Part shown: one piece after another, positions 1-4,976 of the stretch | Layout of the letters: each line of letters opens with the position of its first letter | How positions within the stretch are numbered: position 1 is the first letter of the stretch | Source: a virus | Taxonomy: Duplodnaviria > Heunggongvirae > Uroviricota > Caudoviricetes | IMG/VR virus record: IMGVR_UViG_2681813267_000006 | Coordinates: 1 to 4,976 of that record | DNA length: 4,976 bases | Direction: 5' to 3' (one strand) | Notes under the pieces: model-generated | Seen by the model: the letters and a program-made list of their open reading frames with translations, nothing else | Database searches by the model: none | What the model was told of the DNA's origin: nothing | Made by a program: the position numbers and the translations under genes

Positions 1-78
1 TAAAAAAAGAACAAATGGTAGTGTCCGCTATTGCCAGTACACCTCAAACAGATGTCTGGAAATATAGGGGCAAATCCA
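1..78 (+). mobile_element. Right terminus of an IS2-family (IS3 family) insertion sequence; the element body lies left of the window
   Basis: The sequence ending at 78 (ACAGATGTCTGGAAATATAGGGGCAAATCCA) matches the IS2 right inverted-repeat terminus as I remember it (outer ~32 bp). Further inward the sequence differs from my memory of IS2, so this is probably a relative rather than IS2 itself. The junction sits inside a holin reading frame. Confidence 0.6.
2..67 (+). CDS. C-terminal end of an IS transposase (OrfB-like), 5'-partial; runs in from the left edge
   Basis: The open frame from the window edge translates ...[12 protein letters not shown] and stops at TAG 65-67. The NRCLEI-stop ending matches the IS2 OrfB C-terminus as remembered. 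The stop lies inside the terminal inverted repeat, as is usual for IS3-family elements. Confidence 0.5.
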
Positions 79-222
79 CTTACGCTTATGACTTCCCAGC
101 ACACCAATCGCAGCCCACTGTGATGGACTGACCTGATCCAACCACTGCAAAAACCAGTAGCCGGCACTGCCGGCGGAGGTGCCGTAGGCAATGCCTGTTG
201 ATATTTTTTCCATCTGATACAT
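79..222 (-). pseudogene. S21-type pinholin (class II holin), 3'-truncated by the IS insertion
   Basis: Minus-strand ORF 28..222 begins [44 protein letters not shown], near-identical to the N-terminal ~44 residues of phage 21 S (dual-start motif, TMD1). After codon Ser (91-93) the frame gives [20 protein letters not shown], which has no similarity to S21 TMD2, and no alternative frame restores it. The break coincides with the IS terminus at 78. A G-rich SD-like stretch (GGGGGGCGGG) precedes the ATG at 220-222. Confidence 0.7.
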
Positions 223-252
223 ATCCCGCCCCCCGACAGACCTGTGCTATCG

Positions 253-288
253 GAAAGAAAAAAGGCCATCAGCAAAACTCTGATGGCC
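253..288 (-). terminator. Rho-independent terminator on the minus strand (tR'-like), just upstream of the holin
   Basis: Minus-strand hairpin GGCCATCAG-agttttg-CTGATGGCC (plus 264-288) followed by TTTTTTCTTTCC (plus 253-263). Confidence 0.6.
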
Positions 289-333
289 TGAATCACCTTT
301 ACCAATATTGTATGAAAAAACACGCACGACTAA

Positions 334-362
334 TTGACAATAATTTTCATTTCCATTAAAAA
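334..362 (+). promoter_or_regulatory. Candidate sigma70 promoter on the plus strand, antisense to the phage late transcript
   Basis: Perfect -35 TTGACA (334-339), 17-bp spacer, -10 TAAAAA (357-362, 4/6 to consensus). It lies about 35 bp upstream of a hairpin plus U-run on the same strand. Confidence 0.3.
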
Positions 363-397
363 AGATCGCGTAGCATTCTTAATTCATGAGGAACTTT

Positions 398-463
398 ACC
401 CGCCAGCAATCTGAGTAGCGAAAGCTGTTCATCCCCAATGTTTTTGCTGGCGGGTCCTTTTTT
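398..463 (+). terminator. Terminator-like structure on the plus strand: 12-bp stem, large structured loop, U-run
   Basis: ACCCGCCAGCAA (398-409) pairs with TTGCTGGCGGGT (444-455); the 34-nt loop contains an AGC-GAAA-GCT mini-hairpin; followed by CCTTTTTTC (456-464). The same inverted repeat would also fold in the minus-strand late transcript, but without a U-run. Confidence 0.35.
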
Positions 464-854
464 CTACGGTCCTCCTCCCCGGAGGGGGGCATTTCATTAT
501 TTTTCTAATCGTTACTGGTGAGAAGGCGGAAGAAAAAGCCAGTTCTTCGCCCCTAAATAACAGCATGATTCCAGTCCATGCAAAATCTGATTTCCAGCTC
601 ACACATACCGAGCGCTGTACAAAAAACCGCCAGCCAAGGCAGTTAAGAGTGTGTTCCCGGGGTTTGCTTAGAATATTTTGTAAGTTGTCCGAAGAGATAT
701 TTACAACACCAGAATGATGAATCATCAGTCCCCTGCCAGAGGTTCACTACGTAACCTGACCGACAATGCACCATTCTGGTGCTGAAAAAAGAGCACTGGA
801 ACTGCAACAAAACAACATCACAGAACAGGAGATGGTAAGGAGTCAGACATTCCC

Positions 855-868
855 ACACAATATTGTGT
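855..868. repeat. Perfect 14-bp palindrome ACACAATATTGTGT, candidate dimeric protein-binding site
   Basis: The sequence is its own reverse complement with no central spacer; it sits 35-48 bp downstream of the 3' end of the tRNA array. No U-run follows, so it is not a terminator. Confidence 0.4.
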
Positions 869-902
869 CAGTGCAAATAACAACCTTCGTCTCAAATCTC
901 GC

Positions 903-977
<75 letters not shown>

Positions 978-980
978 ATA

Positions 981-1056
<76 letters not shown>

Positions 1057-1058
1057 GC

Positions 1059-1135
1059 TGGCCCACCACCGAGGACTCGAACCTCGCACCGTCAACTTAG
1101 AAGGTTGATGCTCTATCCGGATGAGCTAGTGGTGG
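1059..1135 (-). tRNA. tRNA-Arg (anticodon UCU), phage-type
   Basis: Reverse complement CCACCACTAGCTCATCCGGATAGAGCATCAACCTTCTAAGTTGACGGTGCGAGGTTCGAGTCCTCGGTGGTGGGCCA; fully paired acceptor stem beginning with an unusual C1:G72, U8, A14, A20 and C35 (Arg identity elements), anticodon loop CTTCTAA, T-loop TTCGAGT, discriminator G73, encoded CCA. Confidence 0.8.
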
Positions 1136-1136
1136 T

Positions 1137-1213
1137 TGGTGGCCCTTGCTGGACTTGAACCAGCGACCTGGCGATTATGAGTCGCTCGCTCTGACCAACT
1201 GAGCTAAAGGGCC
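1137..1213 (-). tRNA. tRNA with CAU anticodon: Ile2 (lysidine, ileX/ileZ-like) or elongator Met
   Basis: Reverse complement GGCCCTTTAGCTCAGTTGGTCAGAGCGAGCGACTCATAATCGCCAGGTCGCTGGTTCAAGTCCAGCAAGGGCCACCA; the anticodon arm (GCGACTCATAATCGC) resembles E. coli ileX-type tRNA-Ile2 as remembered. Ile versus Met cannot be decided from sequence alone. Confidence 0.85.
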
Positions 1214-1222
1214 GGAGGCAGA

Positions 1223-1251
1223 ATAATAACCATATGTCATCACATCTGCAA
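1223..1251 (-). promoter_or_regulatory. Candidate promoter for the tRNA array
   Basis: Minus strand reads TTGCAG (plus 1246-1251), 17-bp spacer, TATTAT (plus 1223-1228, 5/6 to consensus), then 9 nt to the 5' end of the first tRNA. Confidence 0.35.
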
Positions 1252-1299
1252 ACTCATCTGACCACCAGCACGTTTAACGTCCTGTGCCGTTTTTCAGGT

Positions 1300-1324
1300 A
1301 TAAAAAAACCCGCATAAAGCGGGC
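1300..1324 (-). terminator. Short intrinsic terminator about 75 nt downstream of the Q-position gene
   Basis: Minus strand CCCGC-tttat-GCGGG followed by TTTTTTTA (plus A-run 1301-1308). Its position between the Q-like gene and the downstream tRNAs and lysis gene fits an early terminator of a short pR'-type transcript. Confidence 0.5.
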
Positions 1325-1402
1325 TCTTTCAAATGTCCATGTCTGCTATTCGCCTCGCGGTACAGCTTTGCGAAGCGTACAAGAATTGAAGCAGTTTTTA
1401 CG

Positions 1403-1957
1403 TCAAAAAGCAATAACTTTTTTCTCTATACCAAAAGCCATAACCATTGGTTTGTACAAAATAAATTCTGCCACCTTTAGCCAATGCTCAATGCGTCTTT
1501 CACAGGTTCTTAAACTCCATTTCGGGTGTGCATCATTCAGCAGTTCAGCCATTTTGCGTTTGGTCATCCCCCGCCCCTCATACCGTTGCCGAAGGACGCT
1601 AATCAATCCTGGATGCTCTGCCAGCACCTCACTTATGACCCGATCAATACATAACGCCTCTGCATCAGTACAATGCGCCAGCCAGCTCTTTTGCTTACCG
1701 TTAATCATATCCCGCAAAAAAGCCTCAAGTTCAGACTTGTTCAGACCTGCTTTTTTCATCCTCCGGAGCGCCTCGTTAATTGCCGTTTTTGTCAGCTTTT
1801 TAGAGGTCAACATCAGGTTAAACATATTCCCCGTCTTACCGCCACCAATATACGACCAGCGCCCCCACATACGTAGTTTTCCCTGAATCCAGACACTTTC
1901 CAGCGTGGTGAGACGAAGGTGTTCTCCGCTTTTTCCTGTATTCGTTGGGTAAATCAT
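1403..1957 (-). CDS. 185-aa protein in the late-antiterminator (Q) position; family not recognised
   Basis: ORF MIYPTNTGKSGEHLRL...EKKVIAF. The ATG at 1955-1957 is preceded by GGAGG at 7-nt spacing and overlaps the upstream stop (ATGA). The longer ORF from 2077 would overlap the upstream gene by ~120 nt and was not used. The Q call is positional only (last gene before a terminator, tRNAs and holin); the protein has only 3 Cys and no CxxC pairs, so it is not a lambda/82-type zinc-finger Q. Confidence 0.75.
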   Translation of the reverse strand: MIYPTNTGKSGEHLRLTTLESVWIQGKLRMWGRWSYIGGGKTGNMFNLMLTSKKLTKTAINEALRRMKKAGLNKSELEAFLRDMINGKQKSWLAHCTDAEALCIDRVISEVLAEHPGLISVLRQRYEGRGMTKRKMAELLNDAHPKWSLRTCERRIEHWLKVAEFILYKPMVMAFGIEKKVIAF

Positions 1958-2244
1958 AAATATCCCTCCTTTCTCCAGATTTCTTGTGTGCGAAAAACAC
2001 CTTCTGCATGCATCAGGCGTAATTCTTCTTTGGTGTAATCGCTGGTTTTTACCCGCCCGTCGATTAAATCGTGGCACGAGCTACAGGCAATCGCTGCCTG
2101 CATATCGTGTGGCTTTATCGCTGTTCCGCACGTTCCCGCCAGTCGGTAATGCGCCAGCACAGACGTTTCCGGATCGTGATTGCAGTAGCCAGGAATTCTG
2201 ACGGTGCACATCTGCCCCCGCGCCGCTTTACGTAAATCCACCAT
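1954..2244 (-). CDS. ybcO: YbcO-like DUF1364 phage protein (putative zinc-binding nuclease of the Nin region)
   Basis: 96-aa ORF MVDLRKAARGQMCTVRIPGYCNHDPETSVLAHYRL... with four conserved Cys, resembling DLP12 YbcO as remembered. Its start overlaps the upstream stop (TAATG) and its stop overlaps the downstream start (ATGA). Confidence 0.8.
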   Translation of the reverse strand: MVDLRKAARGQMCTVRIPGYCNHDPETSVLAHYRLAGTCGTAIKPHDMQAAIACSSCHDLIDGRVKTSDYTKEELRLMHAEGVFRTQEIWRKEGYL

Positions 2245-2843
2245 TACGCAAACTCCAGCAGCTGCGCGGCCACATTTTCGACTTGTTCCGGAGAGGAAAA
2301 TTTACGGAACAGAATCCAGTTCCACAGCACATTCAGAACAGATTTATAAACCTGCTGAAACTCGGTTTCGTCCATATTCGCAAAAGCGATGGATTTTGCC
2401 CGACGCCCGCGGCTACCGTCCGGATAAAAATGTTCGGTGTAAAATCCAGCCTGAATGGTTACCCACTCGCGAAAAGCCTCAAACGACTTTAGCAATGCCG
2501 TATCCCGGGTTCTGCGTGTCGCAACTGTATTCAGATATTGCTCTGCGGCTTCGCTCAGAGCTGGCGTATGTTCCCGACCTACTGATTCGCACAGGTAATC
2601 AACGAAACCAGACAGCAGTTCTCGTTCGCGAGGCGTGATCGCCCCACCGACCGGAGTCCAGTAATCGAAACCCAGTTGCAGGAGTTTGAAAAAACGCTTG
2701 TGGAATGCGTAGTTACACACACGCTTAAAGTCTGCGTGTATCCACTCACCTATTTTGATTTGATGCAGAAAATCGCAACTCTCCGGCGTCGCCGGGAGAA
2801 GTAATCCGGAAGAGGTTTGTTTGACCAGTTGTATATGTGCCAT
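2244..2843 (-). CDS. Conserved lambdoid Nin-region protein (~199 aa), possibly YbcN-like; function unknown
   Basis: ORF from ATG 2841-2843 (MAHIQLVKQTSSGLLLPATPE...AAQLLEFA), with GGAG about 10 nt upstream. The longer ORF from 2885 has no ribosome-binding site. It is translationally coupled to the ybcO-like gene. The family assignment is tentative and from memory only. Confidence 0.75.
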   Translation of the reverse strand: MAHIQLVKQTSSGLLLPATPESCDFLHQIKIGEWIHADFKRVCNYAFHKRFFKLLQLGFDYWTPVGGAITPRERELLSGFVDYLCESVGREHTPALSEAAEQYLNTVATRRTRDTALLKSFEAFREWVTIQAGFYTEHFYPDGSRGRRAKSIAFANMDETEFQQVYKSVLNVLWNWILFRKFSSPEQVENVAAQLLEFA

Positions 2844-2881
2844 CGGCTTTCTCCGGTGGCACGGTGTTACACAGCAGGAGT

Positions 2882-3169
2882 TCAATCCTGCTCAAGATTG
2901 TAGATGAGTTTATTCTTCAGCAAAAGCAGAAAACCAGCCTTAAAACCAATCTCTTTCAAAACCCGTAATGATGTGACAAATTCGTCCTCACGCAAAATAA
3001 AACCGTCCGTCAGAAGTCCATTACAAAAATAAAATAACACAGCACCGCTCTTCCTTTGTTGAGATTGCAAACATCTAATGCGGCAATGGCTGACAATCGC
3101 TCCATTCTCAACGCGCACAGCATAGAGGCCATTTTCACTAAAAATTTCACGCAATTCTTCGATTTTCAT
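2882..3169 (-). CDS. Hypothetical 95-aa protein
   Basis: ORF MKIEELREIFSENGLYAVRVENGAIVSHCRIRCLQ...; GGAAGGA about 8 nt upstream of the ATG at 3167-3169; own promoter-like element upstream; lies just downstream of the hok terminator. No recognisable family. Confidence 0.55.
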   Translation of the reverse strand: MKIEELREIFSENGLYAVRVENGAIVSHCRIRCLQSQQRKSGAVLFYFCNGLLTDGFILREDEFVTSLRVLKEIGFKAGFLLLLKNKLIYNLEQD

Positions 3170-3250
3170 CTTCAGAATCCTTCCAGATAAATAGCTCTCC
3201 CCTGTTCGGGGTCCATCCCTCTTCTCCCTGCGCGCTACTTAAGTGAGTCG

Positions 3251-3278
3251 ATTCTATCTGCGAAGGTGCGCGAATCAA
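3251..3278 (-). promoter_or_regulatory. Candidate promoter for the 95-aa ORF
   Basis: Minus strand TTGATT (plus 3273-3278), 16-bp spacer, TAGAAT (plus 3251-3256). These are the same hexamers as the predicted hok promoter. Confidence 0.4.
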
Positions 3279-3287
3279 ATTCACCGG

Positions 3288-3343
3288 AAATAAACAACAA
3301 AAAACCCGCCGAAACGCTGAGAGATCACAGCGATGGGCGGGTT
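3288..3343 (-). terminator. Rho-independent terminator ending the hok transcript
   Basis: Minus strand AACCCGCC ... GGCGGGTT with an internal CGCTG/CAGCG sub-stem, followed by TTTTTTGTTGTTT (plus A-run 3290-3304). Confidence 0.6.
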
Positions 3344-3418
3344 AAGTGCGGGTGCGTTGAGGATGCCTGACACATCAGAGGTGGGCGGGGATGGGATCAG
3401 CTCCCCGCCCGGTCACTC

Positions 3419-3574
3419 TTACTTCCTGGATTCGTAGTCTACGAAGACAGCGACCTCCGTCTGGCCGGTTCGGATTCGTACCTCACAGAGGTCTTTCCTC
3501 GTTACCAGTGCCGTCACTATGACGGTTAAACAGATGACGATCAGGGCGATTAACATCGCCTTTTGCTGCTTCAT
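3419..3574 (-). CDS. hok: Hok/Gef-family type I toxin (51 aa)
   Basis: MKQQKAMLIALIVICLTVIVTALVTRKDLCEVRIRTGQTEVAVFVDYESRK: single transmembrane helix plus conserved C-terminal motif, nearly identical to HokD/HokC as remembered except at the extreme C-terminus. AAGGAG lies about 9 nt upstream of the ATG. Confidence 0.9.
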   Translation of the reverse strand: MKQQKAMLIALIVICLTVIVTALVTRKDLCEVRIRTGQTEVAVFVDYESRK

Positions 3575-3631
3575 AGCCTGCTTCTCCTTGCCTTTCGGCA
3601 TGTAAGAGGCTAACCTACATGTGCAAAGCAT
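3419..3631 (-). CDS. mok: mok-like overlapping reading frame (in-frame N-terminal extension of hok, 70 aa)
   Basis: The in-frame upstream ATG at 3629-3631 gives MLCTCRLASYMPKGKEKQA + Hok, the same arrangement as MokC/HokC. Confidence 0.55.
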   Translation of the reverse strand: MLCTCRLASYMPKGKEKQAMKQQKAMLIALIVICLTVIVTALVTRKDLCEVRIRTGQTEVAVFVDYESRK

Positions 3632-3685
3632 GAAATTGGCCTCAGATTAATGTTAAGCGTCTTGCCGGACGCGTAATGTTAACTG
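3623..3685 (+). ncRNA. sok: Predicted Sok-type antisense RNA (coordinates approximate)
   Basis: Expected from hok/sok architecture. Candidate plus-strand promoter TTGCCT (3588-3593), 17-bp spacer, TAACCT (3611-3616); hairpin GCGTC-ttgccg-GACGC (3657-3672) followed by GTAATGTT. The transcript would be complementary to the mok start region. The promoter match is weak. Confidence 0.25.
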
Positions 3686-3750
3686 GGGCTTTTCTCTATC
3701 TGCCTTTTGGTGTTCATGCCTGAAGCAGATAGCCTCAAGCACCCGCAGTC

Positions 3751-3780
3751 ATTCTACTTACCTCGCCAATATGAAATCAA
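3751..3780 (-). promoter_or_regulatory. Candidate hok/mok promoter
   Basis: Minus strand TTGATT (plus 3775-3780), 18-bp spacer, TAGAAT (plus 3751-3756). The predicted transcript 5' end near 3745 carries UGCGGGUGC, which is complementary to GCACCCGCA (plus 3347-3355) just upstream of the terminator, resembling the 5'/3' pairing of hok mRNAs. Confidence 0.35.
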
Positions 3781-3801
3781 TCAGAAAGGTGCCCCATAAA
3801 A

Positions 3802-4488
3802 TCACTCCTTCTCTTCTTTACCGTAGTGGAGTTGACCAATTTTGATAAGAGGGCGTCCCTGAGATTTGCGGTGTAGATTGGTATCGCGCAGAGAATACAC
3901 ACAGCCACAATATTCCTGCTGATAGAATTTTTCGCGCTTGCTGATTTCAATCATACGGGACGAGCCGCCCTGCTTGCGCCAGTTATAATCCCAGTACACC
4001 ATGCCCGGATAATGCGCGACGGCTCGCCGCCCACAGTCGTTAACCTGCTGCATATTTTTCCAGCGTGAAATGCCCAGTGAACTGCTGATCACACTGAAAC
4101 CATTTTCAGCGGCGTACAGCGCTGTCCGCTCAAAACGCATGTCAAAACACATGGTGCAACGGATCCCTCGTTCGGGCTCCCATTCCATTCCTTTGGCTCG
4201 TTCAAACCAGTTGTCTGTGTCGTAATCAGCATCAATAAACGGCACGCCGTGTTGTTCAGCAAAGCGAATATTCTCATCCTTACGAATTAAATACTCTTTC
4301 TGAGGATGAATGTTCGGGTTGTAGAAAAAGATGGTGTAGTCGATTCCCGAGGCCTGAAGCGCCTCCATCACCTCACCGGAACATGGAGCACAGCAAGAGT
4401 GCAGTAGTAGTTTGTTTGCCCCGTTTGGGAGCTCCAATTTGGGCCGTTTGAAATCAGCAACTGTCATAAATATGTTTATTGGGGTCAT
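3802..4488 (-). CDS. queH: QueH-type epoxyqueuosine reductase homologue (DUF208 family), 228 aa
   Basis: ORF contains the family hallmarks [18 protein letters not shown], RCxMCFxMR and YCGCVYS. The start is uncertain: ATG 4486-4488 or ATG 4465-4467, neither with a strong SD. Confidence 0.8.
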
Positions 4489-4635
4489 AAAAATATCAAA
4501 GAGTGTAGCATTAGAACGGGGCTATCGGAAACAGATGTGTGACTGCTCCCCGCCCTTTCGGGTGGTCTCCTGATGATTTGAGGGTGCAGAAATCCCTCCG
4601 GTTAAGGATTAAATTTTTAACAGTGCTAAATTTAA

Positions 4636-4976
4636 TTATTCAGTTCTGGATTTTGTCGCCCTGCGTATCCGCGCTTTCGCGTTACGCTCAATCTGTATCA
4701 GCTTTTCTATATTTCTCCGCCTTTCCTGTTCCTCCTGGCGCAATAGCCTTACATCATCTGCCAGTCTGGTTTCTCTTTTTGCCACAGAGAGCATCCAGTC
4801 AAACGGCTCCACAACCGCACCGCAGATTTTACAGCGGACCTGACGCTCTTTTTCGTCAACCCGGACAGAGGCGTGATGGCAATATGGTCTTTCCGATGGT
4901 TCATAAAGAAAATTAACCTGATTACGTGGGTCATCCTCTTTTACCGGAAATAAAACGATATTGCTTAACTCATCTT
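4636..4976 (-). CDS. 3' end of an unidentified protein (5'-partial; start lies right of the window)
   Basis: The minus-strand frame is open for 112 codons from the window edge to TAA (4636-4638): DELSNIVLFPVKEDDPRNQVNFLYEPSERPYCHHASVRVDEKERQVRCKICGAVVEPFDWMLSVAKRETRLADDVRLLRQEEQERRRNIEKLIQIERNAKARIRRATKSRTE. Protein-like composition with a C-HH...C-x2-C motif and a basic, probably helical tail. The provided ORF track omits it because it has no in-window start. Confidence 0.55.
   Translation of the reverse strand, partial: DELSNIVLFPVKEDDPRNQVNFLYEPSERPYCHHASVRVDEKERQVRCKICGAVVEPFDWMLSVAKRETRLADDVRLLRQEEQERRRNIEKLIQIERNAKARIRRATKSRTE

Follow-up and report, generated by a model that had tools for sequence, protein, structure and literature searches.

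The hok/mok/sok locus of plasmid R1, in which mok occupies another reading frame than hok, is plasmid-borne, acts in post-segregational killing (PSK), mediates plasmid maintenance, and is reported to reduce T4 plating. The tac/fbi/ucb/dcb model of its mRNA was established for R1 (PMC9841398). The closest relative of the locus described here is mokW/hokW/sokW of phage 933W and of VT2-Sakai (Sakai prophage 5; AF125520): hokW-sokW was shown experimentally to be a type I toxin-antitoxin (TA) system, sokW neutralized toxic HokW, and mutation of the sokW promoter released HokW toxicity (Takada et al. 2021, PMC8621323). hokW-sokW aided lysis and doubled phage release after mitomycin C, and HokW was reported to be distant from R1 Hok, with 44% identity (PMC8621323). 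K-12 hokD (relF), carried by the Qin cryptic prophage, belongs to the same lineage. hok genes show an about four-fold enrichment in prophages (bioRxiv 10.1101/2025.08.07.668861), and the same preprint cites a report that the intact native chromosomal hokA/B/C loci do not mediate PSK.

The window (the whole 4,976-nt stretch analyzed, i.e., positions 1 to 4,976 of the Caudoviricetes record IMGVR_UViG_2681813267_000006) carried on the minus strand of 3288-3780 what is, with a probability of about 0.9, an intact hok/mok/sok type I TA cassette of the hokW/hokD lineage, located in a lambdoid prophage between replication genes and a Q-like antiterminator gene. On sequence grounds its identity as a hok/mok/sok cassette is secure, and we infer expression and toxicity of the window allele from homology. 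The locus is already known, in that its family is well characterized, annotated, and very common, and it held nothing surprising.

Gene organization and closest relatives

The coding and promoter elements of the cassette, together with the antisense RNA, were as follows:
3780-3751, minus strand: sigma-70-like hok/mok promoter-like site, with -35 TTGATT (3780-3775), 18-nt spacer, and -10 TAGAAT (3756-3751); 9/12 consensus match
3631-3419, minus strand: mok ORF of 70 aa, starting with ATG at 3631 and containing hok in the same frame
3574-3419, minus strand: hok toxin ORF of 51 aa, MKQQKAMLIALIVICLTVIVTALVTRKDLCEVRIRTGQTEVAVFVDYESRK, assigned by Pfam, PHROG, and identity to HokW/HokD
3588-3616, plus strand: putative Sok promoter, with -35 TTGCCT (3588-3593), 17-nt spacer, and -10 TAACCT (3611-3616)
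3623-3693, plus strand: predicted Sok RNA of ~71 nt, with the 933W sokW annotation transferred via pairwise alignment

The 51-aa product matched Pfam HOK_GEF (E 9.8e-23, 79.9 bits against a cut-off of 22) and PHROG 251 'MokW-like host killing' (E 1.3e-32), while the NCBIfam Hok subfamily model gave sub-threshold matches alone (55 bits against a curated cut-off of 73). The leader 3744-3569 matched Rfam sok (RF01794) end to end at 117 bits (gathering score 59), and this match fell on the minus strand because the model is written in the hok-leader sense. High nucleotide identity to lambdoid prophage loci across leader, ORF, and fbi placed the locus in the hokW/hokD sub-lineage. The original prediction of a complete hok/mok/sok-type locus was borne out, since all the elements described were found on the minus strand where it had placed them, and family, strand, ORFs, promoter, terminator, and fold-back pairing were all upheld by family models, folds, and homologues.

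The mok-like in-frame extension that had been predicted for the toxin was recovered as the 70-aa ORF opening at the upstream ATG 3631, with its own SD (GAGG at 3643-3640, 8 nt upstream of this ATG); in length and frame it equaled the annotated mokW of 933W, and in-frame mok extensions were kept in Escherichia and Photorhabdus homologues. The window mok was thereby in frame with hok, unlike that of R1. Seven loci (L013, L014, L015, L028, L030, L034, and L041) displayed a 1-nt insertion between the mok and hok starts (column 163 of alignment A2); ORF scanning of these seven gave no in-frame mok extension, so that mok, if present there, would use another frame.

Over the stretch between the hok promoter -10 and a point just beyond fbi, the window and 933W/VT2-Sakai loci were 92% identical in DNA, and they had the following in common: a 70-aa in-frame Mok, the Sok promoter hexamers, the Sok hairpin, tac, and fbi. 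They differed in the -35 region, the terminator, and the mok start region complementary to the Sok tail, and a 7-nt post-stop insertion belonged to the window. The hok ORFs were separated by four synonymous changes plus one amino-acid change, the window Hok thus being 50/51 identical (98%) to HokW of 933W/Sp5, with the VDYES.K ending shared and R50 in the window against E50 in HokW. Genome positions also differed: the window locus lay between QueH and the Q-like gene, whereas that of 933W lay at 58.4-58.7 kb of a 61.7-kb record. The original prediction had read the toxin C-terminus as VDYESRK and as unfamiliar; the sequence was correct and unlike the TAYEPEE of HokD, but the ending was of HokW type (VDYESEK in 933W). 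A new Hok subtype defined by this C-terminus was considered and rejected, as the HokW ending was identical but for one residue.

Alignment of the toxin with K-12 HokD, which the original prediction had proposed, gave 46/51 identical residues (90%), with TAYEPEE in place of VDYESRK at the end. The K-12 and window loci occupied the same neighborhood upstream of the late-gene antiterminator and shared the same fbi and a terminator of the same type; however, the K-12 match began only 14 nt upstream of the hok ATG, and its promoter, tac, mok start, and sok were replaced by relBE, while the window kept all of them. In window coordinates, the K-12 copy lost everything upstream of 3588 to relBE. Since K-12-type loci carry relBE upstream, the window copy represents an un-truncated Qin-type hokD locus, showing the form of the truncated K-12 hokD before relBE replaced its control region. 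With the R1 locus, the window shared the tac/fbi fold-back, a ucb anti-SD hiding the mok SD, a Sok antisense to the region where mok starts, a hairpin following the stop codon, and a terminator beyond fbi; it differed from the plasmid-borne R1 locus in residing on a prophage.

An identical 551-bp segment was present in Escherichia coli FDAARGOS_943, and RefSeq labeled this identical DNA hokD (WP_014532198.1); its record of that DNA contained neither the mok ORF nor the Sok RNA, annotations usually carrying the hokD CDS alone. DNA identity to hokD-annotated loci ranged from 89 to 92%. Some match was found in 4713 of 5426 complete E. coli genomes, and in 2129 of the 5426 (~39%) a match extended over at least 80% of the query; among the matches in these 5426 genomes, only 3 records exceeded 95% identity. 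Two GTDB representative records, titled E. coli and Shigella flexneri, were 99.6% identical. Genomes of E. coli with any match had a median of 2 and a maximum of 9 matching places.

Beyond its correct annotation, the window locus matters little and gives no special handle on the role of prophage-borne hok/sok; it does allow the tac/fbi fold-back, the anti-SD stem, and the tac hairpin to be confirmed by a clean comparison of Escherichia, Kluyvera, Pantoea, Erwinia, and Photorhabdus.

Promoters, Sok, and conserved RNA structures

A promoter-like element had been predicted upstream of the toxin, and a site TTGATT-18-TAGAAT was indeed located at 3780-3751, one of 2 such sites in the region against 0.6 expected from the consensus scan. 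Its -10 TAGAAT was conserved among relatives, while the -35 varied, as exemplified by TTGGCG at a 17-nt spacing in the E. ruysiae locus L006. Compared to its closest relatives (3757-3785), the window promoter had lost 10 nt between its -10 and the ancestral -35 (the L006 promoter being TTGGCG-17-TAGAAT), and a GATT duplication created TTGATT at 18-nt spacing, replacing the ancestral -35. The hok transcript probably starts near G3744, because the -10 hexamer ends at 3751, and G3744 coincided with the first position of the Rfam sok model; with such a start, 3747-3745 would likely not be in the RNA.

A second promoter-like site, TTGATT-16-TAGAAT at 3251-3278 (minus strand), was composed of the same two hexamers and lay directly 3' of the hok terminator, and the E. 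ruysiae locus had the counterpart TTGAAG-18-TAGAAT after its own hok terminator (L006 1822-1851). The window site probably drives the 95-aa ORF at 3169-2882, the product of which matched PHROG 340 (unknown function) and no Pfam family.

On the plus strand, the putative Sok promoter fell below the threshold of the consensus promoter scan (7/12, weak) and was located by homology to sokW: both hexamers recurred unchanged ahead of the sokW annotated in 933W, and TAACCT is exactly the sequence replaced by primer YO-421 in the promoter-less sokW of Takada et al. 2021 (PMC8621323). Sok, for which the original prediction had given no position, was predicted to fold (dG -30.2, z -4.9) with 9 nucleotides unpaired at its 5' end, followed by a long hairpin and a tail rich in U, and the Sok 5' tail was complementary to the mok AUG and the codons after it. 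Between this tail (3623-3639, GCAAAGCAUGAAAUUGG) and that of sokW (GUUCAGCAUGGAUUGAG), 7 of 17 positions differed, the remaining Sok being identical; such a difference could limit cross-talk among paralogous hok/sok loci.

The structured elements predicted in the hok mRNA were as follows, in transcript order:
3747-3733, minus strand: tac element at the 5' end, UGCGGGUGCUUGAGG, pairing with fbi in the full-length RNA (MFE folds)
3690-3639, minus strand: ucb/anti-SD stem-loop, burying the mok SD GAGG (3643-3640) against GCCCC (3689-3685), its complement being the Sok terminator hairpin
3410-3383, minus strand: GC-rich hairpin directly following the hok stop codon and conserved among the homologues, where columns 358-384 showed compensatory changes (RNAalifold)
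3362-3347, minus strand: fbi (fold-back inhibition) element, CCUCAACGCACCCGCA, pairing with the 5' tac
3342-3294, minus strand: intrinsic terminator, with an 8-bp stem (3342-3335 / 3309-3302) around an inner hairpin, then UUUUUUGUUG; dG -22.8

Pairing between the two ends of the transcript had been predicted from a 9-nt complementarity of UGCGGGUGC at 3747-3739 with GCACCCGCA at 3355-3347. This 9-mer was absent elsewhere in the window, its chance expectation was 0.04, and none of 200 shuffles gave 2 matches. Folding of the full transcript, which had been proposed as a check, agreed: the MFE fold of 3747 to 3296 contained a helix of 15 bp with one bulged C, joining 3747-3733 to 3362-3347, and the whole-transcript fold had a z-score of -8.15. 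The complementarity is therefore real as a part of the 15-bp tac/fbi helix, but the outer three of its nine pairs (UGC/GCA, 3747-3745 with 3349-3347) may precede the transcription start; they held in an E. coli-like subset only and changed without compensation in L009, L028, and 933W.

Conservation of the pairing was examined on 49 loci from one-genome-per-species contigs, which gave 37 distinct transcripts, each starting at the tac element and ending 80 nt beyond the stop codon, from Escherichia, Shigella, Kluyvera, Pseudocitrobacter, Pantoea, Erwinia, Kalamiella, and Photorhabdus, aligned with MAFFT. Per-sequence duplex folding paired the 5' element with a segment lying 40-50 nt beyond the stop codon in 32 of the homologues examined, the exceptions being truncated contigs, an N-run, or a higher-scoring GC-rich alternative. 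RNAalifold on the 37-sequence alignment kept just 2 tac/fbi pairs and chose a competing local tac hairpin, and the fold-back pairs were therefore counted explicitly on the alignment. Core pairs (columns 4-10 with 415-422) were standard in 32-36 of the 37 sequences, and column pair 7:419 displayed a compensatory switch (U-A in 20 sequences, C-G in 13). Altogether 81.9% of the tac/fbi alignment cells were paired, against 35-54% with the 3' partner slid by 1-3 columns, a count that under-counts the second half of the helix since MAFFT shifts the bulge-less Photorhabdus rows by one column; per-sequence duplex folding gave a contiguous helix in Photorhabdus. The observed tac/fbi covariation score was reached by 0 of 500 shuffles. 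Conservation in homologues, on which the original prediction had made the pairing depend, was thus found, with the core kept across the 37 transcripts and a compensatory change within it.

These results also bear on the reading that both the small ORF and the 5'/3' complementarity arose by chance in intergenic DNA. Its one attraction is the small size of the elements, and it is already refuted, with a practically negligible probability: a 9-mer pair had an expectation of 0.04, the family models matched at E 1e-22 to 1e-32, and the pairing was conserved and covarying across genera.

The alternative local tac hairpin (3742-3716), forming without fbi, displayed covariation of its own in RNAalifold (7:32, UA 20 / CG 15; 15:24, AU 14 / GC 13). 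Column 7 covaried with two alternative partners, which is what the published closed/open switch of hok mRNA predicts (PMC9841398). When the last 80 nt were removed, the 5' end of the MFE fold went over to the local hairpin, but the mok SD was not opened, unlike in the published opening, an outcome regarded as uninformative. The anti-SD stem (MFE pairs 3643-3685, 3641-3687, and 3640-3688) had compensatory changes between columns 60-70 and 99-111: 65:105 (AU 30/GC 7), 66:104 (GC 17/AU 12), and 69:100 (GC 21/AU 15).

Toward the 3' end, the 3410-3383 hairpin, which carried the 7-nt insertion relative to the closest relatives, was presumed to be the 3' end protector of processed hok mRNA and could stop trimming, a role carried over from R1 hok (PMC9841398). 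An intrinsic terminator had likewise been predicted, and direct folding gave the 8-bp stem followed by a run of six U. The consensus terminator scan of 3150-3900 returned no terminator, and it missed this one because the loop was too long (the scan allows at most 8 nt). Relatives had a compact terminator, AACCCGC-TTCG-GCGGGTT plus a T-run, while the terminator loop of the window had a ~24-nt insertion forming an inner hairpin (3302-3342). The allele-specific indels in promoter, post-stop hairpin, and terminator loop all left the predicted structures intact.

Prophage context

The gene order of the FDAARGOS_943 prophage was as follows: cI/Cro-like regulators, YdaT, replication genes, DUF977, QueH, hokD, a 95-aa hypothetical gene, DUF1367, DUF1364/YbcO, DUF1133 Q-like gene, four tRNAs, holin, lysozyme, and lysis protein; the window spanned QueH through holin. 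By this order, the locus lay in the equivalent of the lambda nin region, as had been proposed.

The class II holin ORF (222-28, minus strand) matched holin families over its first 44 residues only and then diverged. Similarity to related E. coli prophages began at base 90 of the window, and bases 1 to ~80 matched an IS2 terminus (with matches at the ends of IS2 transposase genes on plasmids). Given the IS2 end and the divergence of the holin ORF, the holin gene appears to be interrupted by IS2, in line with the earlier remark that the prophage is lysis-defective, its lysis cassette being interrupted.

Some further features were observed in this part of the window. Four tandem tRNA genes (903-1213, minus strand), with the specificities Gly-TCC, Thr-TGT, Arg-TCT, and one with the CAT anticodon, lay between the Q-like and lysis genes, and the CAT-anticodon tRNA was called Met by ARAGORN and Ile by RefSeq in the matching genome. 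FDAARGOS_943 had an IS1 between the DUF1133 gene and the tRNAs, and the window was without it. Between the DUF1133/Q-like gene and the tRNAs, positions 1300-1387 (minus strand) gave weak, sub-threshold Rfam matches (Trp_leader at 23 bits and isrK at 20 bits, E 0.2-0.5); a hairpin resembling a terminator and lying 3' of the late promoter is one possible source of these matches, which may well be due to chance.

Proposed mechanism and competing readings

The mechanism proposed here was drawn from plasmid R1 hok/sok and from hokW-sokW, and the window sequence was consistent with its every step. A weak constitutive promoter would yield a stable hok mRNA of ~450 nt, in which the 5' tac would be clamped to the 3' fbi and the mok ribosome-binding site would be buried by the upstream anti-SD box, so that the full-length RNA would be neither translated nor bound by Sok. 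Slow 3' trimming would take off fbi, whereupon the 5' end would refold and mok, together with the coupled hok, would become translatable. As long as the short-lived Sok (3623-3693, plus strand) is made, it would pair with the mok start region and the duplex would be destroyed. Once Sok synthesis stops, whether by DNA loss, transcription shut-off, or prophage induction, the 51-aa Hok would be made, insert in the inner membrane, and kill or lyse the cell.

What such a cassette does for its carrier can be read in several ways; the original prediction had suggested that it could stabilize the prophage or serve in phage defense. One reading takes it as active, with the main role of speeding lysis and phage release after SOS induction and not primarily of addiction or defense. 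This is the only experimentally supported role of the closest relative, 50/51 identical in its toxin (PMC8621323), and location in the early/delayed-early prophage region means that induction could perturb Sok synthesis; still, IS2 interrupts the holin gene, which makes it unlikely that productive lysis and release are selectable here, the 933W cassette sits elsewhere in its genome and thus in a different regulatory context, and R1 hok/sok has the reported effect on T4 plating. This reading is accordingly rated as possible but rather doubtful. The holin being broken, a lysis-helper role would not be under selection in this prophage, and prophage maintenance or persistence as a selfish cassette seems more plausible than lysis help here. 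PADLOC had no model matching Hok or its neighbors, hence no database support for a defense role.

Somewhat less likely again is a structurally intact but functionally silent locus, one that decays as a passenger in a crippled prophage and resembles the K-12 chromosomal hok loci, which cannot kill. The degenerate prophage with an IS2 end in its holin gene would fit this, as would the private indels in promoter, post-stop hairpin, and terminator loop, the loss of everything upstream of 3588 to relBE in K-12 hokD of the same lineage, and the lack of PSK that the preprint cites for native chromosomal hokA/B/C. Against it, no element was missing or disrupted and the ORF was open; hok had diverged from 933W by only the four synonymous changes and one amino-acid change, the promoter indels left a 9/12 promoter at correct spacing, the terminator insertion kept the closing stem and U-run, and the paired elements were still complementary. 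A distinctly unlikely, speculative reading is that the window has a rare allele with kinetics or a trigger unlike those of hokW/hokD, maybe insulated from paralogue cross-talk, as an independent addiction module; this reading was based on the rarity of records with >95% identity, the rebuilt -35, the 7-nt and ~24-nt insertions, and the 7/17 differences in the Sok tail. If true, the insulated allele would hold the IS-crippled prophage in the chromosome.

A separate observation concerned the toxin C-terminus. TadA A-to-I editing reportedly turns a Tyr codon into Cys in hokB and does the same at the C-terminal Tyr of hokC/D/E (bioRxiv 10.1101/2025.08.07.668861). The Tyr47 codon TAC of the window hok (3436-3434, minus strand) lay within CUACGAA (3431-3437), a TACG context like that of the reported TadA sites. 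In the 37-sequence alignment, this codon was TAC in 34 sequences and a hard-coded TGC (Cys) in 3, namely the two Pseudocitrobacter copies in L041 and Pantoea osteomyelitidis L047.
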